Assembly (NCBI GenBank): GCA_964620245.1
Contig: CAZUJC010000006.1
Coordinates: forward strand, 1 to 33,913
DNA: 33,913 nt
Direction of reading: 5' to 3'
Origin: an uncultured Pseudomonadota bacterium
GTDB lineage: Bacteria > Babelota > Babeliae > Babelales > JACPOV01
Below, one piece after another: positions 21,943 through 31,651 of the stretch (position 1 is its first letter; each line of letters starts with the position of its first letter). Under the pieces are notes generated by a model. It saw only the letters and a list, made by a program, of their open reading frames with translations. It did not search any database and was not told where the DNA came from. The position numbers and the translations under genes are program-made.

Positions 21943-22968
21943 ATGAACTACAATTTTTGTGCAATTCTTATTATTTTGATTCCTGTGCAGCTTTTTGCCA
22001 TGTCGGCAAACGATCAAGCAAAACAATGCCGATTGTACCAAAATGCTGAAATCACTTCTCAAAATTTGTATTCCTTGTCACGTAAAATGTCTCCAGAATT
22101 GCAACAAGCGGTCAATTCATGGGCAAAAGAGCATGGCCAATTTTTGCATACCGCTCTACCACTCACGCAAGATACAATCACCGACAAAGATGAAATTACC
22201 ACTGAGCAACAAACATTTAAAAAAATAATTAATGAAAAATTTGTCAACAAATCAGAAAAAAATGCATCATTTGATGTTATGCTCAATAATGAAAAATGGT
22301 TCATTAAATTTGTAGGCCCCGAACGAAGAGCTCACGCTATTTTACATGCAAATAACTTCTTTCAACAATATACTCAATTAACCAAACATTTGACGCGTAA
22401 ACATACCTATATGACTCCCAGTCATGTAGCAGGTTATTTACGAGCAATTGAAATAATCAAGGCAAAAAAACTAACTAAATTCAAGGTACCTGCAACCTAT
22501 TTGGCTCAAATTCCCGAAAGAACTGACATAACCACTCAAGTAAATGATGAAAATTGTTTTGTTATACAAGAAAATCTTCCACAAATGGAATTCTTAGACA
22601 AAAATTCAAAACTCATAACAGACATTGATGAACACACTCTCTATGAACTCTACACAATTATTAAAGCAGTACCTTTGTGGGATGTAGCTGCAAATCTTTT
22701 GTTTGACCAAAATGATGGTTCTTATGCAGTGTGTGATTTAGAACAATCATGGGAAGAACCAGATAAGTTTTTTAATAGAGACGCTGAATTGGTAAAACTA
22801 AAAATAAGCAATGGAATTGAAGAATTGGGTCTTCTTATTAAATTAAGTGCCAAGCGGGGATTTGAAGTACATGAACAACATACAAACTTTGTAAAATTCG
22901 TTCAAAATGATGATTATTTTCAAAAACTAGGCATTCCGGATCGTATAAAAAAAACACTCATCTTATAA
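21943..22968 (+). CDS. Secreted hypothetical protein, possible protein-kinase-like fold
   Basis: Signal peptide ending QLFA; spaced motifs WFIK, FKVP, FVIQE, WDVAAN, VCDLE. Confidence 0.6.
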   Translation: MNYNFCAILIILIPVQLFAMSANDQAKQCRLYQNAEITSQNLYSLSRKMSPELQQAVNSWAKEHGQFLHTALPLTQDTITDKDEITTEQQTFKKIINEKFVNKSEKNASFDVMLNNEKWFIKFVGPERRAHAILHANNFFQQYTQLTKHLTRKHTYMTPSHVAGYLRAIEIIKAKKLTKFKVPATYLAQIPERTDITTQVNDENCFVIQENLPQMEFLDKNSKLITDIDEHTLYELYTIIKAVPLWDVAANLLFDQNDGSYAVCDLEQSWEEPDKFFNRDAELVKLKISNGIEELGLLIKLSAKRGFEVHEQHTNFVKFVQNDDYFQKLGIPDRIKKTLIL

Positions 22969-22976
22969 TTTTCTAC

Positions 22977-23011
22977 AAATAGAGGCAGGAAATCTCCTGC
23001 CTCTATTTTTT
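22977..23011. terminator. Bidirectional intrinsic terminator between convergent genes
   Basis: Perfect 14-bp inverted repeat AAATAGAGGCAGGA-AATC-TCCTGCCTCTATTT followed by further Ts. Confidence 0.88.
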
Positions 23012-23026
23012 GCACTGTTATTGTTT

Positions 23027-23149
23027 TTATTTTTTCATTCCTTGCAATGTTGCTGTTAGTTGAGTTAACTGATCAAGCAGTTTTTGCATTGAGGCAACAA
23101 GAGGTTGCATACCCACTGGGCCTGGCGCGGGTGACGGTGTTGGTGTCGG
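23027..23149 (-). repeat. 123-bp direct repeat copy 1 (3' end of ANK-1)
   Basis: Ungapped match to 25655-25777 with 14 mismatches by manual count. Confidence 0.92.
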
Positions 23150-24211
23150 TGCAATCGCAAAATTTGTAAGTGGTAACGCTTGCGCTTTTTCAAGTGCATT
23201 GATAATTCGTTGGAACTTGATCTTCCCCTGTCCGGTTTCTGCTTTCTCTTCCTCGCGCGCCATATCAAGCGCCATTTTTCCACTGATTTGTCCGACCAAA
23301 TTAGCACCTAATTCAATCAATGCTTCAACAACTCCCAAAGAACCGTTTTTTGCAGCAGCTGCAATCGGGGTGAACCCCGCAACAATACCATTTTTATCAG
23401 CACCTGCTGCAATTATCGCTTGTGTAAATTCTTTTGCATTCATATCGCTAATGTCTGAATTCATAGCCACCGCCATTAAGGGTGTATATCCTGTATCAGG
23501 ATCAGAAAAAGTCGGATTGAATGGTTTTTTAAGCAATGTTCTGATTGCTTCAATATTGCTCTGTGCAATGGCCGCGATCAGATCTGTAGCGTTTTTATTA
23601 GCATTAAAAAACTCTGGTCCCGGCATTGGTGGCGCTGATGGCTGCTTTGACTTTGCATCTTGAAGTTTTTTTACTAACGCATCAAGTTTTTTATCACGTG
23701 CAATTTTTATTTCAGCATCTGTTACTTGTGCACCATTTGCTAAAAGAAAATCAATAACATCTCCATATCCACCGTTAGCAGCAGCCCATAATGCTGACAC
23801 ACCAAACATATCAATTGCATTTACATCGTTATCGTTAGTGAATAATAATTTCACTAAATCCAAATCACCTTTTTCTGCAGCATTCATAAGTGGCGTTTTA
23901 CCTACATCATCAGCAATTTTTAATGCACCTGCTGGAAGAACCTGAAGAAAAAACTCAATTATATCTCTATATCTTTTATCAGATTTATTGTAGTTTTTGG
24001 TTAAATAACCAAGAGCTGTTGCTCTATCCGGTCCACCTGTATATGATAAAAGACCTGGAAATTGGCCTACGTTGCCCTTATTAATTACCATCTGTGCAAT
24101 CATATTTTCTTCAAACGGCTTCAGCCATTCTTGTTTTTGCTCATTGGTCATGGCCACCATTGCATTTCCAGAGAATAAACAACTTATAAGTAATATTAAT
24201 TTAGTTCTCAT
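23027..24211 (-). CDS. Secreted ankyrin repeat protein (ANK-1, 394 aa)
   Basis: Signal peptide; GKTPLMNAAEKGDLDLVKLL, GVSALWAAANGG, GYTPLM, GFTPIAAAAKNG; Pro-rich linkers; C-terminal heptad helix. Confidence 0.92.
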   Translation of the reverse strand: MRTKLILLISCLFSGNAMVAMTNEQKQEWLKPFEENMIAQMVINKGNVGQFPGLLSYTGGPDRATALGYLTKNYNKSDKRYRDIIEFFLQVLPAGALKIADDVGKTPLMNAAEKGDLDLVKLLFTNDNDVNAIDMFGVSALWAAANGGYGDVIDFLLANGAQVTDAEIKIARDKKLDALVKKLQDAKSKQPSAPPMPGPEFFNANKNATDLIAAIAQSNIEAIRTLLKKPFNPTFSDPDTGYTPLMAVAMNSDISDMNAKEFTQAIIAAGADKNGIVAGFTPIAAAAKNGSLGVVEALIELGANLVGQISGKMALDMAREEEKAETGQGKIKFQRIINALEKAQALPLTNFAIAPTPTPSPAPGPVGMQPLVASMQKLLDQLTQLTATLQGMKK

Positions 24212-24226
24212 GTTTTTCCTTTTTTT

Positions 24227-25540
24227 TTAACTTATTGCCATTATGGCTGTTTTCAATGACTCAATCTGTTTGTTCAGATTGTTCATTGATAGCTGCACAC
24301 TAGATTGTTGCATTTTTTTCTTAAGCAACTCAATAATTGCTTCCATTTTTTCTTTATTACGTCCCGCTTTTAACTCACCTTGTGCCCACACAAGAACATC
24401 AATTGCGCCAGCTTTAGGGTCAGCACCAGCTTGTAAAAGCATATCAACCGCATCTACATGCCCCGCAGTAACCGCAAGCATAAGCGGCGTATGACCTACT
24501 TCATTGATTGCATTAACATCACTATTTTCAATTAAAAGACGCAAAAGTTTTTGATTTTCTCGTGAATCAGGGATTGTTTTAAGGAATAACATCAGAGGAG
24601 TCATACCTGCTTGATCACGTTGCTCAAAATCAATCATCTTTGGATCAAGTGCAAGAAGTTCTTTAATCAATGATATTCTTTTTTTGATAATTGCACTCAG
24701 CAAGCTGCGCCCTCTATTTACACGTTCTTCCTGCTCTCTACCAACATCAGGACGTTCTACCGGTTGCTGATAGCCGATTTTTTCTTCAACTAATTTTAAT
24801 ATTGCACGAGCTTTGCGATTTAATTCGCGCATTGCCAATGTTTCGCGAACACGATCTCGCGCTCTTTCAAGAAGATTTTCTTTAGAAGCGATATCGCCTT
24901 TGAGCAGTTCTTTTACTAACTGTTCATTGCTTGCATAAATTGCACCAATGAGCGCAATCTGCTTGTCGGTCAGCAAGCGAACAATATCAGAATATTTTTG
25001 CGCCAGTTGCTTATTTTCTTTTTTTACTTTTTCGTTTGCCCGCGGATTATTTATTGCATTTGTTGCTTGTGTTATTTCATTTCGTGCTATTTCAAGCGCA
25101 GTTTGACCTTTTTTGTTTTTCAGCTGCACATCAGCACCATGCACAATGAGAAACTCTGCAGCAGGAACTGCGCCGACATTAACCGCAACCATGAGGGGTG
25201 TATTGCCATCTTTATCCACAGCATTGATATTGGCACCTTTTGCAACTAATTCGCGCATTAATTTTTGCGCTCGGGCAGTACCAGTGATGGTGCGATATGA
25301 GCTAATCAACCACATTAATGGTGTTGCACCCTGTTTGTTATCCTGCACATTAACATCAATTTCATTTGACCCAAAACGTAACAACTTCTCAACTTCATCT
25401 AATTGACCAGGAGTGACAATTGCACGAATAAGGTCGACACCTCTTTGTCGAGCAGTTGCGCCTGACTCTTTTTGCATACTATTAAGCAACGGCACAATGC
25501 ATAACAAACCACTTAACGCTACTATTTTTTTTCGCATCAT
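24227..25540 (-). CDS. Secreted ankyrin repeat protein (ANK-2, 437 aa)
   Basis: Signal peptide; GATPLM, GANINAVDKDGNTPLMVAV, GQTALEIA, GMTPLM, GHTPLMLAVTAGH; AAGGAG RBS. Confidence 0.92.
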   Translation of the reverse strand: MMRKKIVALSGLLCIVPLLNSMQKESGATARQRGVDLIRAIVTPGQLDEVEKLLRFGSNEIDVNVQDNKQGATPLMWLISSYRTITGTARAQKLMRELVAKGANINAVDKDGNTPLMVAVNVGAVPAAEFLIVHGADVQLKNKKGQTALEIARNEITQATNAINNPRANEKVKKENKQLAQKYSDIVRLLTDKQIALIGAIYASNEQLVKELLKGDIASKENLLERARDRVRETLAMRELNRKARAILKLVEEKIGYQQPVERPDVGREQEERVNRGRSLLSAIIKKRISLIKELLALDPKMIDFEQRDQAGMTPLMLFLKTIPDSRENQKLLRLLIENSDVNAINEVGHTPLMLAVTAGHVDAVDMLLQAGADPKAGAIDVLVWAQGELKAGRNKEKMEAIIELLKKKMQQSSVQLSMNNLNKQIESLKTAIMAIS

Positions 25541-25598
25541 TTCTCCTTATTTAATTTATTTTTTTTGAGAATATAGAAAAATCTACATCTATTTGCAC

Positions 25599-25635
25599 AA
25601 AAAAAACAAGGCAAGCGAACAAATCGCTTGCCTTG
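25599..25635 (-). terminator. Rho-independent terminator after ANK-3
   Basis: Perfect 12-bp stem CAAGGCAAGCGA-ACAAA-TCGCTTGCCTTG followed on the minus strand by an 8-nt T tract. Confidence 0.88.
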
Positions 25636-25654
25636 AAAATTATTATTCCGTTTT

Positions 25655-25777
25655 TTATTTTTGCATTCCTTGCAATGTTGTTGTTAATTGAGTCAACTGA
25701 TCAAGCAGTTTTTGCATTGAGGCAACTAGAGGTTGCATACCCACAGGCCCAGGCATTGGTGAAGGTGTTGGAGTTGG
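25655..25777 (-). repeat. 123-bp direct repeat copy 2 (3' end of ANK-3)
   Basis: Ungapped match to 23027-23149. Confidence 0.92.
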
Positions 25778-27724
25778 TTGCGGCATTGGTTGCGGTAGTG
25801 TTCCACCCAGTTTTTGAATAAATGTGCCATAATCTTGCTTCTTAGAACCAGCAGCGCTCGCGTAAGCTTTCTGAGCCAACGTTAATGCCGTTTCATTTTC
25901 TGTATTAATAACCCTCGAGTCTGCACCTTTTTCAACTAAATATTGAGCGACGCCCAACAACCCCTGCTTAACAGCCATTATCAGAGGAGTATCTCCTTCC
26001 TCATCAGCAGCATTTAAATTCGCTTTTTTTCCTAAAAACAGGTCAATATCTTTTTTTACTGTTTCGAGTGACGGTACACTTTCAGCAAAATAAAAAATGT
26101 ATGCAGCAAATGGTGTTAATCCATAGGTACCTTTGAAACTCATATCAATTGGCTCAACGTTAAATGCATTCATAAACGCATCTCTATTTTTAGTTCTAAT
26201 AGCGTCATAAAGAACTTTAGCATTTCTTTGAGCATCTCCACTTGGAACGGGAATCGGTTCTGGTTCAGGTGTTGGTTGTGGTGCGGGTGCTTTTTCTAGT
26301 AATATTTTAACAATTCTATTCAATATAATTTGCTCAGCAAGGTTTTTTGTTTCTTTTTCTAATTTGTTGGCAATTTGTAAAGCCGTCATACCTCGATAAT
26401 CGCCACTGGTTGCTACTTTATTCACATCAGCTCCAGCATCGATAAGATATCGTGCCCCATTTTCTGTTTTTGTTATAGCAGCACCCATTAGCGGCGTAAT
26501 TCCTTGATCATTTTCCAAATTAATATCTGCTCCAAATTTTGTAATAAGTGTATCTATAAAATATTTTATAGCGTTTAAATTTTGACTTGAAGCAATTCTG
26601 CCAACATACTCGATTAAGATTCCATTCCCTTTGCGTCCACGGTAATTCCCATTTATTTTACCAGCGGGCAATCCGAGTAATTCCACTATTTTATTATTGT
26701 CGTTATCCATGATTGCTTTGATAAGATCTTGCGCATATTCATCTGGTGTTCTATCAACTGGAACCGGAACTGGGATTGGTTCAATTCCAATCGCACTTTC
26801 GATCATTTTATAAATATTGATAGTAGCTTGCGTTGGACCTGCATCACGAAGTTGTTTTGCATATTCAATTAACGGTTTTCCCTGAAAATCTCTTTTTGCA
26901 TCGGCACCTTTTTCTAAGAGATATTTAACCGCAAACTCAGACTTATTTTTGATCGCATCACTTAAGGGAGTATTTTTATTATTATCCTCTTCATTTATTC
27001 CTGACCGTTTGCCAATAGGACGCTTAAAAATAAGATCAAAAATTTGTTTAAGTTGGTTTTGATTATCTGAAAAACCATCTATTGCCCAATGGAGCGATCC
27101 AGCTCCTGCAGCATCTTTTACCGTAATATCTATTTTATCATCAGGCAACTTAAGTAACCCAAGAGAAGAATTGAAATCTTTTTCTTCAAGAGCTTTTAAC
27201 AATTTTTGACCATTGTTCAGACGAGTTGTTGTACCATCAAGAATTTTAATAATATTTTGATAATCTTCAATTTTTTGATCATCAGTTTCAGCTCGATATC
27301 CATCTCGTGCCATATCAAGCGCAGTTTTACCCTGGCTTCGCATGCTTACATCGGCACGTTTATCGAATAATATTTGTACTGCTGGTAAATTGCCATTTCG
27401 ACTTGCAACCATAAGCGCTGTTACACCGTTATCATTTTCGGCATTGAGCACTCCTTGTGAAAGAGCGTCAATAGCTTGCCTTAACATGTCTGGAGCAAAT
27501 TTCAAACGCGTAAAACCATCAAGATAAGCCATCAATGGTGTCATACCATCAGTCCCACGATACGCAGGATCAATTTGATTTACATTTTTTAATAATGCTA
27601 GTGCTTTTCTGCTGTCACCCTTTCCAACTGCTTCAATAAAATCGGCCGCATTTTTTTGCTTTGGGTCCATGCCGATTAATAGCGAGTGTACACAAATAGT
27701 CAGCATTAATAACTTCAGTCTCAT
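25655..27724 (-). CDS. Secreted ankyrin repeat protein (ANK-3, 689 aa, four modules)
   Basis: Signal peptide; many G.TPL/TAL ankyrin repeats; Pro-rich linkers PIPVPVP, PAPQPTPEPEPIPVP, PQPMPQPTPTPSPMP; GAGGAG RBS. Confidence 0.92.
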   Translation of the reverse strand: MRLKLLMLTICVHSLLIGMDPKQKNAADFIEAVGKGDSRKALALLKNVNQIDPAYRGTDGMTPLMAYLDGFTRLKFAPDMLRQAIDALSQGVLNAENDNGVTALMVASRNGNLPAVQILFDKRADVSMRSQGKTALDMARDGYRAETDDQKIEDYQNIIKILDGTTTRLNNGQKLLKALEEKDFNSSLGLLKLPDDKIDITVKDAAGAGSLHWAIDGFSDNQNQLKQIFDLIFKRPIGKRSGINEEDNNKNTPLSDAIKNKSEFAVKYLLEKGADAKRDFQGKPLIEYAKQLRDAGPTQATINIYKMIESAIGIEPIPVPVPVDRTPDEYAQDLIKAIMDNDNNKIVELLGLPAGKINGNYRGRKGNGILIEYVGRIASSQNLNAIKYFIDTLITKFGADINLENDQGITPLMGAAITKTENGARYLIDAGADVNKVATSGDYRGMTALQIANKLEKETKNLAEQIILNRIVKILLEKAPAPQPTPEPEPIPVPSGDAQRNAKVLYDAIRTKNRDAFMNAFNVEPIDMSFKGTYGLTPFAAYIFYFAESVPSLETVKKDIDLFLGKKANLNAADEEGDTPLIMAVKQGLLGVAQYLVEKGADSRVINTENETALTLAQKAYASAAGSKKQDYGTFIQKLGGTLPQPMPQPTPTPSPMPGPVGMQPLVASMQKLLDQLTQLTTTLQGMQK

Positions 27725-27774: not shown

Positions 27775-28737
27775 TTAGATTTGTAAAATTAATTCCTGGC
27801 TTTCGCTGCGTTTTTTTAATTGCTGAATATACGATTCATATGTTTTTTTCAAACCGGCACCAATAGAAATTTGTACCCTCCAGCCAAGATTATTTATTGG
27901 TGTACAGTCAAGCAATTTTCGCGGTGTACCATCAAGTTGTTTATCAAAAACAATCGCACCTTGGTACCCTACAATTTCTTTTACCATTTGTGCAAGATCA
28001 CGAATAGTAATTTCCTGCCCACTGCCAATATTAATTAGTTCAGATTGATTATATTTTTGCATTAAGAAAACGAGCGCTCGCGCGCAATCATCAACATACA
28101 AAAATTCACGCAAAGCATTTCCTGTACCCCACAAAATAACATGTGAAAGACTCTCTTGCCTTGCATGATCAATTTTTAAAATAAGCGCAGGAATTACGTG
28201 CGATCTTTCTGCATCAAACGTATCTCCAGGGCCATAGAGATTGGTGGGCATGCACGCAATAAAATTATTCTTATATTGCTTGCGGTAGGCTTCGATCATT
28301 TTTATCCCAGCAATTTTTGCAATTGCATACGGTTCATTTGTTTGCTCTAAGGGACCGGTGAGCAAATGTTCTGGCTGCATTGGTTGCGGGCAGTTGCGCG
28401 GATAAATGCATGAAGAACCAATAAATAATAATTTTTTTACTTTCTGCAGATGTGCAGCGTGAATGACGTTTGTTTGAATCATAAGATTGTCGTACAAAAA
28501 CGTAGCTGGATAATTGTTATTTGCTTTAATGCCACCGACCGTTGCTGCAGCTAAAAAAATATAGGCCGGTTTTTCTCGCGCGAAAAAATTTTCTACCATT
28601 TGTTGATTGCGCAAGTCCAGTTCAGTTTTTGTCGCAAAAACCAAATTTATATACCCATGTGCTTTCAACGCACGGACAAGAGCTGAACCAAGCAATCCTT
28701 CATGGCCAGCCACATAAATTTTTTCATTTATATTCAT
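27775..28737 (-). CDS. fcl: GDP-L-fucose synthase
   Basis: IYVAGH.GL.GSAL, AA.VGGI.AN, GSSCIYP, YAIAKIAG, PTNLYGP.D.F...SHVIPAL, REFLYVDD, DGTPRK. Start at ATG 28737. Confidence 0.96.
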   Translation of the reverse strand: MNINEKIYVAGHEGLLGSALVRALKAHGYINLVFATKTELDLRNQQMVENFFAREKPAYIFLAAATVGGIKANNNYPATFLYDNLMIQTNVIHAAHLQKVKKLLFIGSSCIYPRNCPQPMQPEHLLTGPLEQTNEPYAIAKIAGIKMIEAYRKQYKNNFIACMPTNLYGPGDTFDAERSHVIPALILKIDHARQESLSHVILWGTGNALREFLYVDDCARALVFLMQKYNQSELINIGSGQEITIRDLAQMVKEIVGYQGAIVFDKQLDGTPRKLLDCTPINNLGWRVQISIGAGLKKTYESYIQQLKKRSESQELILQI

Positions 28738-28741
28738 TACT

Positions 28742-29851
28742 TTACTCAAGTTCGACAAAACGATGTGGTGCTTGATAAAATACCGCTCGTTGCGCGCGCA
28801 ACGATTGTTCAACTACATGTAAATCGTGTTGCACCATTAATGAAACCAATCCACTAAAATCAACAGTTGGTTGCCAACCCAATAGTTGATGCGCTTTTGT
28901 TGCATCACCGCACAGCTGCTCAACTTCAGTCGGCCTTAAATACCGTTTATCAACCGCTACTAATGGCAAACTAGTTGCACCAAAACGATTATCGTACGCT
29001 TTTTGTTCGACACCAACTCCGTGCCATTCGAGTTTAATGCCAACTTGTTCGAATGCGCATTCAATAAACTCTCGCACTGAATGCATTTGGCCGGTCGCAA
29101 TAACAAAATCTTGCGGTTTTTCTTGTTGCATCATCAACCACATTGCATACACATCATCTTTTGCATAGCCCCAATCTCGTTTTGCATCAAGATTGCCTAA
29201 ATAGAGCGTTGTTTGCAATCCGTGTGCAATATGCGCAACAGCGCGTGTGATTTTGCGCGTTACGAACGTTTCACCACGCAATGGAGATTCATGATTAAAT
29301 AAAATACCGTTGCATGCAAACATGCCATAAGCTTCTCGATAATTAATCGTAATCCAATGTGCATACAATTTAGCAACCGCATATGGAGAGCGAGGATAAA
29401 ACGGAGTCATTTCATTTTGCTTTTTTGATAAAACTTTACCAAACAGTTCGCTTGTTGAAGCTTGATAAAATCGCGTTGTTTCATTTAAATCTGTCAACCG
29501 AATTGCTTCGAGCAAACGCAAAGTTCCGAGTGCATCACACTGAGCTGTGTATTCCGGCGTTTCAAATGAAACTTGTACATGACTTTGTGCCGCTAGATTA
29601 TAGAGTTCATCTGGCCTAATTTCTTTTATCAATCGAACTAAATTTGTCGTATCGGTTACATCACCATAGTGCAAAATAAATGGCGCATCATGGTTTTCAT
29701 TTCTATCTTTATATAAATGATCAATGCGACTTGTGTTAAAAGATGAGGAGCGTCGTTTAATTCCGTGTACTTCATAACCCTTAGAAAGCAAAAGTTCGAC
29801 TAAATATGCACCGTCTTGCCCGGTCACTCCAGTAATCAGCGCTTTCTTCAT
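28742..29851 (-). CDS. gmd: GDP-mannose 4,6-dehydratase
   Basis: [65 protein letters not shown]. Confidence 0.98.
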
Positions 29852-29865
29852 ACGTTCTCACTTTT

Positions 29866-30900
29866 TTACGTATAGGTGGTACCAAATTTTTGTTCAAGCT
29901 GGTGTACCAACTGTTTTACTTTCTCAACTTGCGATCTTTTGACAATTAATAATGCATCGTCTGTTTCAACAACACATAAATCATCAACACCGATTAATCC
30001 CACAACTTTTTTATTTGATAAAATTAAATTGTGATTTGCTTCTACGGTAACTACATTGGCTGCTTGTTTGACTGAATGCAGTAATAAAAATGTTTCAATA
30101 TTGCCAACATCTGACCAGCCAAACTGCACTGGAAGAACATACACATTTTTGCTTTTTTCAAGTACTGCATAATCGATTGAAATAGATTCGCACAGCGCAT
30201 ACGCATTTTTATCGCCCGCATCGTATTTTGCAATATTTTTTAAAATTGAAGGTGCATAGGTGGTAAAATCATTAATAAATGAACGAACGGTGCCACAAAA
30301 AATGCCAATATTCCACAACAGGTGCTGACTTTTGACATAGTGCTCGGCGGCATTTTTATCAGGTTTTTCGTGAAATCGCACCACCGAACACACTGCGGTT
30401 TGTCCCGTTAATGGAATCGGTTTGTATTCTATATAACCATAGCCAGTTGCCGGATGAGTCGGGTGCAAACCAAGTAACGCAATTCCTTCATGATGCGCGG
30501 CAAAAGTTGCAGCAGTATTAATGTTTTCAATAAATTGATGAGAATCGGCAACAAAATGATCAGCTGGAGTAAATACAATTACTGCATGCGGATCAATTTT
30601 TTGTATAAATAAACAGGCAAGTGCAATTGCAGGTGCGGTGTTGCGCGAAATTGGTTCTGCGATAATGTGTCCAACTCGAGCACCAACTTTTTTTGCAATT
30701 TCTTTTTCTTGTTGTGCGGTGGTAATAATAATGAGTTGCTCTCGGGGTATATAGTGCACAAAACGATCAATTGTTTGATCAAGCAATGAACTTCCGTTCG
30801 TAAATGGCAGCAATTGTTTTGGTCGCGCGGAGCGACTCAGTGGCCACAACCGTTCCCCTTTTCCTCCTGCAAGAATCACGACATAGACGGATGGTTGCAT
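29866..30900 (-). CDS. manC: Mannose-1-phosphate guanylyltransferase
   Basis: ILAGG.GERLWPLSR..RPKQLL, EP.SRNTAPA, PADH, TGYGYI, F.EKP, SIDYAVLEK, WSDVG. No C-terminal PMI cupin. Start likely at ATG 30900. Confidence 0.95.
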   Translation of the reverse strand: MQPSVYVVILAGGKGERLWPLSRSARPKQLLPFTNGSSLLDQTIDRFVHYIPREQLIIITTAQQEKEIAKKVGARVGHIIAEPISRNTAPAIALACLFIQKIDPHAVIVFTPADHFVADSHQFIENINTAATFAAHHEGIALLGLHPTHPATGYGYIEYKPIPLTGQTAVCSVVRFHEKPDKNAAEHYVKSQHLLWNIGIFCGTVRSFINDFTTYAPSILKNIAKYDAGDKNAYALCESISIDYAVLEKSKNVYVLPVQFGWSDVGNIETFLLLHSVKQAANVVTVEANHNLILSNKKVVGLIGVDDLCVVETDDALLIVKRSQVEKVKQLVHQLEQKFGTTYT

Positions 30901-30910
30901 AATTGAAGCC

Positions 30911-31651
30911 TTATTTTTTTTTGCTATTAAACAGGCGATCATACCACAGCGAACAAAACTTTTTTGCAGCTTCAGTCATAATATGTGTTGATAATTTTGA
31001 TTCACCATGCAAACGGTTTTGTGCCTGAATTGGAATTTGGCCGATTTCAAGTCCTGCTTTTTTGAAAAAATAGATAGATTCCATGCAAAATGAAAATCCA
31101 CGAGAATCGAGATTTTCAAAAATGGCTGGATTAAGCGATGAAACTCGATACAACCGATATGCACCAGTACAATCGTAGGGCATACCAAGACACGTACGAA
31201 TCATCCACCGCCAAAAATAAGTAAACGGTAAACGTAATTTACCCCATCCACTCATACCGCCACCGCTGATGTACCGTGAACCAATAACAATATCATTATT
31301 GGTTTCGTGGGCCACTAGTTGCGGAATATATTTAGGGTCATGCGTAAAATCGGCATCCATGGTAATAAGAAAATTATAATTATTTTTGCGTGCGTAGCGA
31401 AAAGCCTCGATATGTGCTGTTCCGAGTCCTAATTTTCCGGATCGATGCAACACCTGCACACAACTATCAAGCGCTGCAATGTCGTCTAATACCTCACCAG
31501 TGCCATCGGGAGAATTATCATCGATAAAATAAAAATCTATTGGTAATTGCAAACTTTTAATCGCTTTATAGAGCAGCGAAACATTGTCACGTTCATTGTA
31601 GGTCGGAATCGCAACGAGAATTGTATTTTTTTGTACCATGCATAGTTCCAA
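30911..31651 (-). CDS. GT2 polyprenol monophosphomannose synthase-like (Dpm1/Ppm1)
   Basis: IPTYNERDN, IDDNSPDGTG, R.GKLGLGTA, MDADFTHDP, IGSRY, DCTGAYRLYR, R.HGESKL. Start may be at 31639. Confidence 0.9.
   Translation of the reverse strand: MELCMVQKNTILVAIPTYNERDNVSLLYKAIKSLQLPIDFYFIDDNSPDGTGEVLDDIAALDSCVQVLHRSGKLGLGTAHIEAFRYARKNNYNFLITMDADFTHDPKYIPQLVAHETNNDIVIGSRYISGGGMSGWGKLRLPFTYFWRWMIRTCLGMPYDCTGAYRLYRVSSLNPAIFENLDSRGFSFCMESIYFFKKAGLEIGQIPIQAQNRLHGESKLSTHIMTEAAKKFCSLWYDRLFNSKKK

Follow-up and report, generated by a model that had tools for sequence, protein, structure and literature searches.

Three neighboring ankyrin-repeat genes, ANK1, ANK2, and ANK3, raise the question of why proteins with divergent bodies and an apparent export signal should end in an amphipathic helix of the same design. 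They lie on the minus strand of the window, that is, the whole stretch of 33,913 nucleotides that was analyzed. The source organism is an uncultured Dependentiae parasite with a 94%-complete genome, denoted G000 in the comparisons. A preliminary description had suggested that the helix is either a second export signal or an assembly zipper. The three open reading frames (ORFs) are present as described, with strong Pfam ankyrin matches in all of them (Table 1), and the proposed architecture is supported: a Sec-type N terminus is followed by cargo that varies, then by a flexible linker rich in Pro, and last by an amphipathic heptad helix at the C terminus. The claimed signal peptides were recovered as signal-peptide-like starts, called here and in all comparisons by a crude charge-plus-hydrophobicity rule only.

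Table 1. Coordinates of the ankyrin genes, their tails, and the adjoining hairpins in the window
Feature	Coordinates	Strand	Basis
ANK1, ankyrin-repeat protein, 394 aa	23027..24211	-	ORF; Pfam Ank_2 4.5e-27; AlphaFold2 model
ANK1 signal-peptide-like N terminus, 21 aa, ending in a small residue then Met	24149..24211	-	Translation; crude signal-peptide rule, Met motif
ANK1 tail tract: Pro-rich linker, three-heptad helix, and stop, homogenized with the ANK3 tract	23027..23149	-	14/123 nt differ; identity limited to tract
ANK1 heptad helix core, 22 aa, a/d all Leu or Met	23036..23101	-	Heptad analysis; AlphaFold2 helix
GC-rich hairpin 3′ of the ANK1 stop, probable terminator	22982..23003	-	Alignment
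ANK2, ankyrin-repeat protein with divergent C-terminal heptad helix, 437 aa	24227..25540	-	ORF; Pfam Ank_2 2.6e-34
ANK2 C-terminal heptad helix, 22 aa, stopping 1 residue before the C terminus	24233..24298	-	Register as in ANK1/ANK3; homology unproven, missed by profile built without ANK2
ANK3, four ankyrin modules with Pro-rich linkers between them, and tail, 689 aa	25655..27724	-	ORF; Pfam Ank_2 4.4e-35; linkers located
ANK3 tail tract: linker, helix, and stop	25655..25777	-	DNA alignment, substitution count
ANK3 heptad helix core, 22 aa	25664..25729	-	Heptad analysis
Strong terminator-like hairpin past ANK3, 12 pairs then T-run	25607..25635	-	Hairpin

ANK1 consists of the signal-peptide-like N terminus, two ankyrin modules with a Pro-rich linker between them, and the tail. 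ANK2 lies upstream of ANK1 with a gap of 15 nt, and the hairpin 3′ of ANK3 indicates that ANK3 is probably a transcription unit of its own. The AlphaFold2 model of ANK1 contains two helical-repeat blocks and, outside the ankyrin fold, an isolated tail helix (residues 369 to 392 of 394) on a disordered tether (linker residues 354 to 371, pLDDT of <50).

The hydrophobic residues reported at positions 1, 5, 8, 12, 15, 19, and 22 of the helix (L, M, L, L, L, L, and M) were confirmed and fill every a and d position of the heptads; in all 11 tails compared, these positions hold L, M, I, or V. The tails thereby show what defines coiled coils and leucine zippers, namely, at least three heptads with hydrophobic a/d residues in a predicted helix. 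A six-layer heptad window occurs approximately 0.003 to 0.004 times per protein C terminus in this genome, and a chance origin of the pattern is negligible. The e and g positions carry uncharged polar residues (Ser, Gln, and Thr), with an invariant Gln at the central g position, and a stripe of Ser, Asn, and His is conserved beside the hydrophobic face. Species differ mainly at positions b and f, which point outward. Between G000 and G004, some of the residues that face outward are conserved as well. The extreme C-terminal residues vary.

ANK1 and ANK3 share 37 of their last 40 residues, whereas their bodies are only approximately 30 to 35% identical. As previously described, the 123 bp encoding these residues and the stop differ at 14 nucleotides, 10 of them in synonymous codons; the other 4 lie in three nonsynonymous codons. 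The selection on the peptide that was proposed from these counts is borne out by a Nei-Gojobori estimate (S = 30.3, N = 89.7, dS = 0.43, dN = 0.046, dN/dS = 0.11), and the excess of synonymous changes has a binomial P value of 3.8e-4. The DNA similarity sets in abruptly at the Pro-rich linker and stops about 5 nt beyond the stop codon. Moreover, tails cluster by genome and bodies by orthology: the tails differ at 4 of 69 nucleotides between the G000 paralogues, at 15 of 69 between the G004 paralogues, and at 19 to 23 of 69 between orthologues, whereas body identity runs the opposite way (48 to 51% between orthologues and 23 to 30% between paralogues). Since the tails are homogenized and the bodies are not, the tails within one cell are kept alike, and the tail tract is, judging from these alignments, a gene-conversion tract within the genome. 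The tail of the third ankyrin gene of the G004 locus, a Trp-rich amphipathic helix, is not homogenized with its neighbors, and neither is that of ANK2.

Between species, the tails retain 78 to 83% identity against about 50% for the bodies, despite the 19 to 23 nucleotide changes. Compared with its orthologue, the ANK3 tail is the best-conserved 23-residue window of the protein (18/23), with none of 639 nonoverlapping windows scoring higher; for ANK1 the tail reaches 19/23, and 11 of 344 windows are higher. Taken with the dN/dS ratio, this pattern of substitution indicates that the tail peptide is under purifying selection.

The position of ANK2 in this picture is doubtful. The claim that its tail keeps the same register was upheld, with S-M, L, Q-[LI], and L as the residues in common, but homology to the ANK1 and ANK3 tails has no statistical support. 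A profile built without ANK2 missed the ANK2 tail, which fell outside the top 8 of 954 C termini; the only ANK2 match was to its N terminus, at rank 13 of 178 rows. Kinship of this tail with the other two thus relies on position and pattern. In a word-based search of 5.8 billion proteins, the ANK2 tail matched only ANK2 itself.

To what extent the tail is shared beyond this locus bears directly on its role. Within this genome it is confined to the tandem paralogues, being found on 3 of 13 ankyrin ORFs, and several ankyrin ORFs that lack it have signal-peptide-like starts. Of 261 Dependentiae genomes, 5 have strong matches to the tail, and in 4 of these 5 the tail-bearing genes are in tandem. 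Among 1.84 billion representative proteins, there are 10 true tail matches, all of them C-terminal. The confident copies all lie 0 to 3 residues from the C terminus of proteins with a signal-peptide-like start. The tail is portable to some degree: non-ankyrin signal-peptide proteins of other Dependentiae carry the same or a similar tail, 11 non-ankyrin paralogues in one genome bear it, and in another family the ankyrin, HD-like, and unknown bodies end in longer zippers rich in Lys and Leu. Of what the preliminary description had anticipated from related genomes, C-terminal placement on signal-peptide proteins with some non-ankyrin bodies was therefore found, and conserved neighboring machinery was not. 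Restriction to paralogues with gene conversion, which it had named as evidence against its proposal, holds inside this genome but not across genomes. The kinship of the ankyrin tails with the G052 tails has moderate support from sequence matching, which retrieved the two G005 tails (E values of 0.006 and 0.056 among 4,155 ORFs) and left the G000 tails unretrieved.

Weaker resemblances were discarded. Genome matches of marginal significance (E values of 1e-4 to 1e-2) fell at internal positions or in nongene frames at 8 of 10 and then 11 of 11 loci, and a further scan yielded 11 marginal matches, 7 of them internal and another in a frame of 39 aa. A regular expression for the motif matched 6 times in 3,955 ORFs, versus 1.2 expected. 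Three of the matches are the ankyrin tails; the others fall in the DnaG primase (its C-terminal helix), in a membrane protein, and in a short frame. The pattern alone is thus not diagnostic and is partly generic.

Searches of structure and family databases returned no relative of the tail. A PDB profile search with the tails gave no significant match, the best (E value of 0.077) being a coiled-coil stretch of a Mediator subunit, and a search of the ESM Atlas for look-alikes of the tail gave no usable match. Five tails were scanned against Pfam (45-aa tails of G000, G005, G052, and ANK2 and a 65-aa tail of G151): those of ANK1 and G005 had no match, those of ANK2 and G052 had noise only, and the longer G151 tail had only subthreshold matches to generic coiled-coil or trimerization families. 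The G052 cargo had no match in the PDB at an E value of ≤0.001 in a fold search, with a best TM score of 0.31. No published description of such a tail was found, although the protein-family tables of Babela (Additional file 9) might list one.

Several known systems resemble the tail in part. It is like coiled-coil and leucine-zipper tails in its Leu-type a/d residues throughout and in being one terminal helix joined by a flexible linker to folded domains, and unlike them in having only three heptads, uncharged polar e/g positions with an invariant Gln, and no sequence match in Pfam or the PDB. Ankyrin repeats are combined with a small C-terminal adaptor in the ANK proteins of poxviruses and Orientia (PRANC or F-box) and in eukaryotic ASB proteins (SOCS box). 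In these proteins, too, a short helical module stands C-terminal to the ankyrin repeats and is better conserved than they are; however, the tail is one helix of approximately 24 aa rather than a three-helix box, the N termini are of Sec type, and the F-box, PRANC, and SOCS-box models had no match to the five tails at E values of up to 10. The S-domain of secretins has a C-terminal helix that rides on a pilotin lipoprotein. It works like the tail could, as a C-terminal amphipathic helix on a Sec-exported protein that docks on a partner, but nothing like a pilotin turned up as a partner here, and the cargoes, unlike secretins, are soluble repeat proteins. With type IX secretion, to which the tail had been likened, it shares the concept of a Sec signal, a cargo, and a C-terminal tag. 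The type IX C-terminal domain is, however, a β-sandwich of roughly 70 to 100 aa, whereas the tail is a 24-aa helix in the AlphaFold2 model and occurs on only 3 proteins in this genome. The whole proteins had no Pfam match beyond the Ank families, hence none to Por_Secre_tail-type domains, and the ANK1 tail had none at E values of up to 10. Sortase, exosortase, and rhombosortase signals (LPXTG, PEP-CTERM, and GlyGly-CTERM), in which a short motif precedes a transmembrane helix and a C-terminal basic cluster, were rejected, given the amphipathic helix (mean Eisenberg hydrophobicity of −0.24 to 0.21, with polar residues at every turn) and the nonconserved terminal residues. The C-terminal signals of type I and type IV secretion, whose substrates have no Sec signal peptide and whose machinery is of the TolC/ABC/MFP or VirB4/VirD4 kind, were rejected as well, given the signal-peptide-like N termini and the lack of OEP or VirB4 family matches in the 94%-complete genome.

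The reading that we tentatively favor is that the tail is a tethered coiled-coil association module, paired or bundled with the tails of sister proteins. On this reading, the three genes encode Sec-exported “beads on a string,” that is, ankyrin modules on flexible Pro-rich linkers, the last bead being a three-heptad amphipathic helix of 22 to 24 residues, of coiled-coil type and with little net charge. In ANK1 and ANK3, linker and helix form a 123-bp cassette that gene conversion keeps nearly identical within a genome and purifying selection conserves between species. We infer that the tails of sister proteins pair or bundle with one another and so bury their exposed Leu faces, which would give homo- or hetero-oligomers of the coexported paralogues. 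Such oligomers may bind with greater avidity or bring the binding specificities of the ankyrin modules together. Against this, a stable coiled coil would normally be longer than three heptads, gene conversion alone could homogenize the tails without any interaction between them, and the e and g positions lack the usual salt-bridging residues of zippers. A complex prediction with three copies of the 30-aa ANK1 tail, run without controls, gave no answer (a score of 0.06, with the mark set at 0.42) and counts neither for nor against association.

A rather unlikely but substantial alternative is docking: the helix would bind a single shared partner without a tail of its own, which could be a protein of the host or else a receptor or pilot of the bacterium, and would thereby tether different cargoes to the same site. 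The invariant Gln and the conserved polar stripe, which adjoin the hydrophobic face, would be just as consistent with a specific groove on a partner, and the conserved outward positions, the strictly terminal helix on a long flexible tether, and the similar tails on different cargo families agree with docking. So does the covariation of tails within a genome, which is expected if they track one coevolving partner. Nevertheless, no candidate partner was found, and self-association would explain the all-Leu a/d core just as well. The conserved neighboring gene at 21943-22968 was rejected as a tail-specific partner, its family being present in 4 of 5 tail-less relatives tested; a search for related loci with its product gave one distant, irrelevant locus only. 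It is improbable that the tail is a functionless remnant at the protein end that tandem duplication and gene conversion have spread. Such an origin would suit its confinement in this genome to tandem paralogues with evident gene conversion and the partly generic pattern shared with DnaG, but the low dN/dS between paralogue tails, their excess conservation over the bodies between species, and the strict C-terminal position of the database matches speak against it.

It is quite improbable that the tail is a membrane-binding helix by which the proteins are held at a membrane of the bacterium or the host. The tail is amphipathic, with an uncharged polar face rich in Ser, Thr, Asn, and Gln; the third G004 ankyrin gene ends in a Trp-rich helix, and the f11 tails are Lys-rich. 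The hydrophobic moment is nevertheless modest (0.33 to 0.47, at a mean hydrophobicity of 0.0 to 0.2), values that we take to fall below the surface-seeking region of the Eisenberg plot. Also, the G000 tails have a net charge of 0 and no aromatic residues, and specific residues (Gln and Ser) are conserved rather than physicochemical character only. The original proposal of a second-step export or sorting signal, which would carry Sec-exported cargo across or onto the outer membrane, did not hold up as a general explanation and is very unlikely. It draws on the extreme C-terminal position of the confident copies on signal-peptide-like proteins, on the unrelated cargoes, and on the genome content, which includes two secretin genes, with TolC-type and VirB4-type genes not found. 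However, most ankyrin ORFs here lack the tail, including others that are signal-peptide-like, and C-terminal heptad helices are not enriched on signal-peptide-like ORFs (3 of 239 versus 5 of 623 others). In addition, secretin genes are ordinary in this group while strong tail matches are confined to the 5 genomes, no machinery gene is conserved beside the tail loci, and the extreme C-terminal residues are not conserved. There is similarly little likelihood in a narrower version, in which the helix is a portable tag, tethered to folded Sec-exported cargo, and is recognized by a dedicated receptor or pilot that delivers selected effectors to the only secretin-type system of these bacteria, for passage through it or placement on it; the homogenization within a genome would then reflect coevolution with the receptor.

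To our knowledge, no linear recognition signal is known for the type II-like pathway. If the tail were such a portable tag, it would supply this pathway with a linear recognition signal that can be transplanted; a true targeting tag would bear on how type II-like systems choose their substrates, which is unlikely on present evidence. The tail does not look like a general export signal; it looks like a small association module specific to this lineage. Dependentiae have small genomes and spend a large share of them on exported ankyrin proteins. Babela is reported to have 126 ankyrin proteins, 79 of them with signal peptides (PMC4378268), and Chromulinavorax 98, of which 78% have signal peptides (PMC6561590). 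A selected module, homogenized by gene conversion and present on a subset of ankyrin proteins, offers a concrete handle on this repertoire, since the tail would point to those effectors that work jointly or share a site of action.

The final 40 residues of ANK1 and ANK3, two of the three adjacent ankyrin-repeat proteins of the window, are identical at 37/40 positions and comprise the end of a Pro-rich linker and an amphipathic helix of three heptads, here called the tail. At the DNA level, similarity of the two genes has a sharp onset at the Pro-rich linker and extends to ∼5 nt past the stop codon, and the bodies of the proteins are only ∼30 to 35% identical. The 123 bp of the tails contain 14 nucleotide differences, 10 in synonymous codons and 4 in three replacement codons. 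All of the numbers that the preliminary description gave for these tails were reproduced on recomputation, and its claim of selection on the peptide is upheld by the Nei-Gojobori estimates (dS of 0.43, dN of 0.046, and a ratio of 0.11) and by the synonymous excess (binomial P = 3.8 × 10−4). Hydrophobic residues occupy positions 1, 5, 8, 12, 15, 19, and 22, which are every a and d position of the heptads. The AlphaFold2 model of ANK1, obtained with a five-sequence alignment, predicts two helical-repeat blocks, followed by a disordered linker (residues 354 to 371, pLDDT of <50) and a terminal helix (residues 369 to 392 of 394, pLDDT of about 59 to 65). The tail of ANK2 keeps to this register, and Ser-Met, Leu, Gln-[Leu/Ile], and Leu are common to all three tails, but a profile built without ANK2 does not retrieve it; its homology, plausible from position and context, is therefore unproven.

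In the source genome (1.04 Mb in 63 contigs, 38% GC, 94% complete), the ankyrin cluster is flanked by secG-tpiA and the gene of a 341-aa exported protein at one end and by a set of GDP-fucose genes at the other. Three ORFs of the latter, directly upstream of the cluster, resemble GDP-L-fucose synthase, GDP-mannose 4,6-dehydratase, and mannose-1-phosphate guanylyltransferase (putative names), and their synteny extends to G004, a genome from the same genus. The 341-aa protein also has a homologue adjoining the ankyrin cluster of G004, and its family is present in 4/5 other relatives tested, with 1 to 3 copies each at 28 to 34% identity. Pfam gave strong ankyrin matches for ANK1, ANK2, and ANK3 and no other family. 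ANK2 and ANK1 are spaced by 15 nt, and a strong terminator-like hairpin follows ANK3, with a second hairpin after ANK1.

Coordinates of the features described in the text
Feature	Location	Strand	Remark
ANK1	window 23027-24211	-	394-aa ORF
ANK2	window 24227-25540	-	437-aa ORF
ANK3	window 25655-27724	-	689-aa ORF
Pro-rich inter-module linkers	window 23615-23644, 26243-26290		also in orthologues at L011 (syntenic G004 locus)
341-aa protein	window 21943-22968	+	signal-peptide-like start, no Pfam family
Putative GDP-fucose ORFs	window 27775-30942	-	
Ankyrin protein N-termini with Met motif	window 24149-24211, 25475-25540, 27668-27724	-	
341-aa protein N-terminus with Met motif	window 21943-22002	+	
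Third G004 ankyrin gene	L011 5724-6734	-	
G052 array	L022 and L060-L067, G052:C3 ∼45.4-56.8 kb		∼10 paralogues, plus one on C4
Longer Lys/Leu-rich C-terminal zippers, family f11	L069, L072, L076, L016		exported proteins
Internal heptad helix	L039, G051:C6 ∼150155-150238		
DnaG primase	G000 (source genome):C8:12665-14503	-	

Signal peptides were assigned by a crude rule only, and the N-termini are thus called signal-peptide-like. In the source genome they end in a regular motif of a small residue, Met, and then Glu, Asp, Gln, or Asn. [AGSTC]M occurs within 14 residues after the hydrophobic core in 73/239 signal-peptide-like ORFs, versus 14/239 in a downstream control zone and 72/623 other ORFs at positions 17 to 30. 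ANK1, ANK2, ANK3, and the 341-aa protein all carry it.

The syntenic locus of G004, with tpiA, the 341-aa protein homologue, three ankyrin genes, and the GDP-fucose genes, bears on how the tails evolved. A tail of the same kind closes two of its three ankyrin proteins. Bodies are 51% (ANK1 versus a 551-aa protein) and 48% (ANK3 versus a 366-aa protein) identical between orthologues, versus 23 to 30% between paralogues. The tails differ at 4/69 nucleotides within the pair of the source genome, at 15/69 within the G004 pair, and at 19 to 23/69 in any pair between the genomes. Bodies thus group by orthology and tails by genome, a pattern of concerted evolution in which gene conversion acted on the linker-plus-helix cassette, most recently in the source genome. 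Between the two genomes the tails show ∼30% nucleotide divergence, yet only 4 to 5 of 23 residues changed. Against its orthologue, the tail of ANK3 is the top 23-aa window (18/23; none of 639 others scores higher), and that of ANK1 is among the best (19/23; 11/344 score higher). Pro-rich linkers also connect successive ankyrin modules in ANK1 and ANK3, and module number is unlike between orthologues (394 versus 551 aa and 689 versus 366 aa), a difference suggestive of module gain and loss at these linkers. The third ankyrin protein of G004, only ∼28 to 33% identical to ANK2, ends in a Trp-rich amphipathic helix and not in the Gln/Leu tail. A related tail is found in G005, which represents a second genus of the family, on the products of two adjacent ankyrin genes at another locus, and tail, Pro/Ala linker, and preceding residues are nearly identical between these two paralogues.

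Among 3,955 six-frame ORFs of the source genome, the ANK1 tail retrieved only ANK1 and ANK3 (next best E of 0.21), and a seven-tail profile gained no members there beyond its own. Restriction to these paralogues, which was to count against a signal, therefore holds inside this genome but not outside it, where other Dependentiae carry the tail. The 35 Ank_2 matches of the genome fall in 13 ORFs, 3 of which (ANK1, ANK2, and ANK3) have a tail; several of the other ten start signal-peptide-like, as read by eye. Filtering for six-layer heptad helices of any kind that end ≤6 residues from the C-terminus selected 3/239 signal-peptide-like ORFs (among them ANK2 and ANK3, with ANK1 not listed) versus 5/623 others, so this architecture is not general in the genome. 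The C-terminal helix of DnaG primase also satisfies a simple expression of the motif (Ser-Ile..Ile..Gln-Phe..Leu...Leu), with the match 6 residues from the end of the protein; because this protein is cytoplasmic, the simple pattern alone is not specific.

Across 261 genomes of the phylum, all of one order, strong matches (E < 1e-7) to an 11-tail profile were restricted to the source genome (3), G004 (2), G005 (2), G151 (1), and G052 (11), and matches at E ≤ 0.01 occurred in 16 genomes. Each of the 11 marginal loci inspected was either internal or in a non-gene frame. L039, in G051, is a motif-like heptad helix with Pro-rich stretches on both sides, ∼500 residues before the end of an open frame of >800 aa (E of 0.0013 per genome, a marginal score). 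Against 1.84 billion representative proteins, the profile returned 11 matches at E ≤ 0.001: four ankyrin proteins of the G000 (source genome), G004, and G005 types, six of the G052 family, and a repeat-protein false positive. The confinement to C-termini foreseen for such a scan was observed, with all ten true matches ending 0 to 3 residues from the C-terminus.

In G052, the tail closes every member of a tandem array of ∼350-aa paralogues, whose N-termini are signal-peptide-like. These proteins match no Pfam family, and their body is confined to this genome within the phylum (1/261). AlphaFold2 predicts an all-alpha fold (pLDDT of 83) with a low-confidence hinge ahead of the terminal helix, and the fold has no PDB match at E ≤ 0.001. 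A profile of G052 tails alone ranks the two G005 tails first and second of 4,155 ORFs (E of 0.006 and 0.056) and finds one G004 tail at E of 1.3, with no tail of the source genome among its best 19 matches; these scores support, with moderate confidence, a relationship to the ankyrin tails. In G151, of family f11, an ankyrin gene broken by a 10-N assembly gap runs on through a Pro-rich linker to a C-terminal zipper of greater length. Searching the phylum with this tail gave weak matches in 8/35 f11 genomes, and the 11 loci inspected comprised three C-terminal zippers, one 39-aa frame, and seven internal matches. The three zippers end 1 to 4 residues from the C-terminus, after Pro/Ser-rich or short linkers, in proteins with signal-peptide-like starts: an ankyrin protein, a borderline HD-domain protein (21.6 bits versus a cutoff of 22), and one without a Pfam family. 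The arrangement of exported cargo, linker, and terminal coiled-coil helix is thus found in at least three families of Dependentiae, with sequences that are specific to each lineage. Unrelated cargoes, which were to support a signal, do occur, with an only moderate link between G052 and ankyrin tails.

The tail had been proposed as a second export signal, by analogy with type IX C-terminal domains, or as an assembly zipper. Its modeled structure, a single helix, rules out a type IX-like domain, and its amphipathic character (mean hydrophobicity of ∼0 to 0.2) rules out a transmembrane or sortase-type signal. With the Pfam threshold relaxed to E of 10, no model gave a meaningful match to the tail, those for F-box, PRANC, SOCS-box, and secretion tails included, and a PDB sequence search gave none either. 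The source genome encodes two secretins, and a TolC-type or VirB4-type gene was not found in its 94% complete sequence, in agreement with the report on Babela, where the only secretion system detected is of type II (PMC4378268). A general second export signal is unlikely, because just a small fraction of exported proteins, and few of the genomes, carry the tail, and tail loci have no conserved machinery gene next to them; a sorting role of any kind is the least probable of the readings considered.

The uninterrupted Leu/Met/Ile stripe at the a and d positions must be buried somewhere, and the helix sits on a long flexible tether and stays similar across all proteins of a cell that bear it. Together with the strong purifying selection, this makes a tethered association module the simplest reading. 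We infer, tentatively, that tail-bearing sister proteins pair or bundle through coiled coils; this self-association and its consequences would go beyond the anatomy, selection, conversion, and distribution observed here. Docking on one common partner, our second choice, is rather doubtful, although the uncharged polar flank with its invariant Gln and the partly conserved outward positions speak for it. A tail devoid of function is improbable, and membrane binding slightly more so. Coiled-coil association among sister proteins is thus the reading that we favor. In the portions available of the literature on Dependentiae ankyrin proteins or effectors, no description of the tail was found. The tails make up a sequence family that is undescribed and restricted to its lineage, whereas the structural element itself is very common; they are not surprising in kind but offer a useful handle for the study of Dependentiae effectors.
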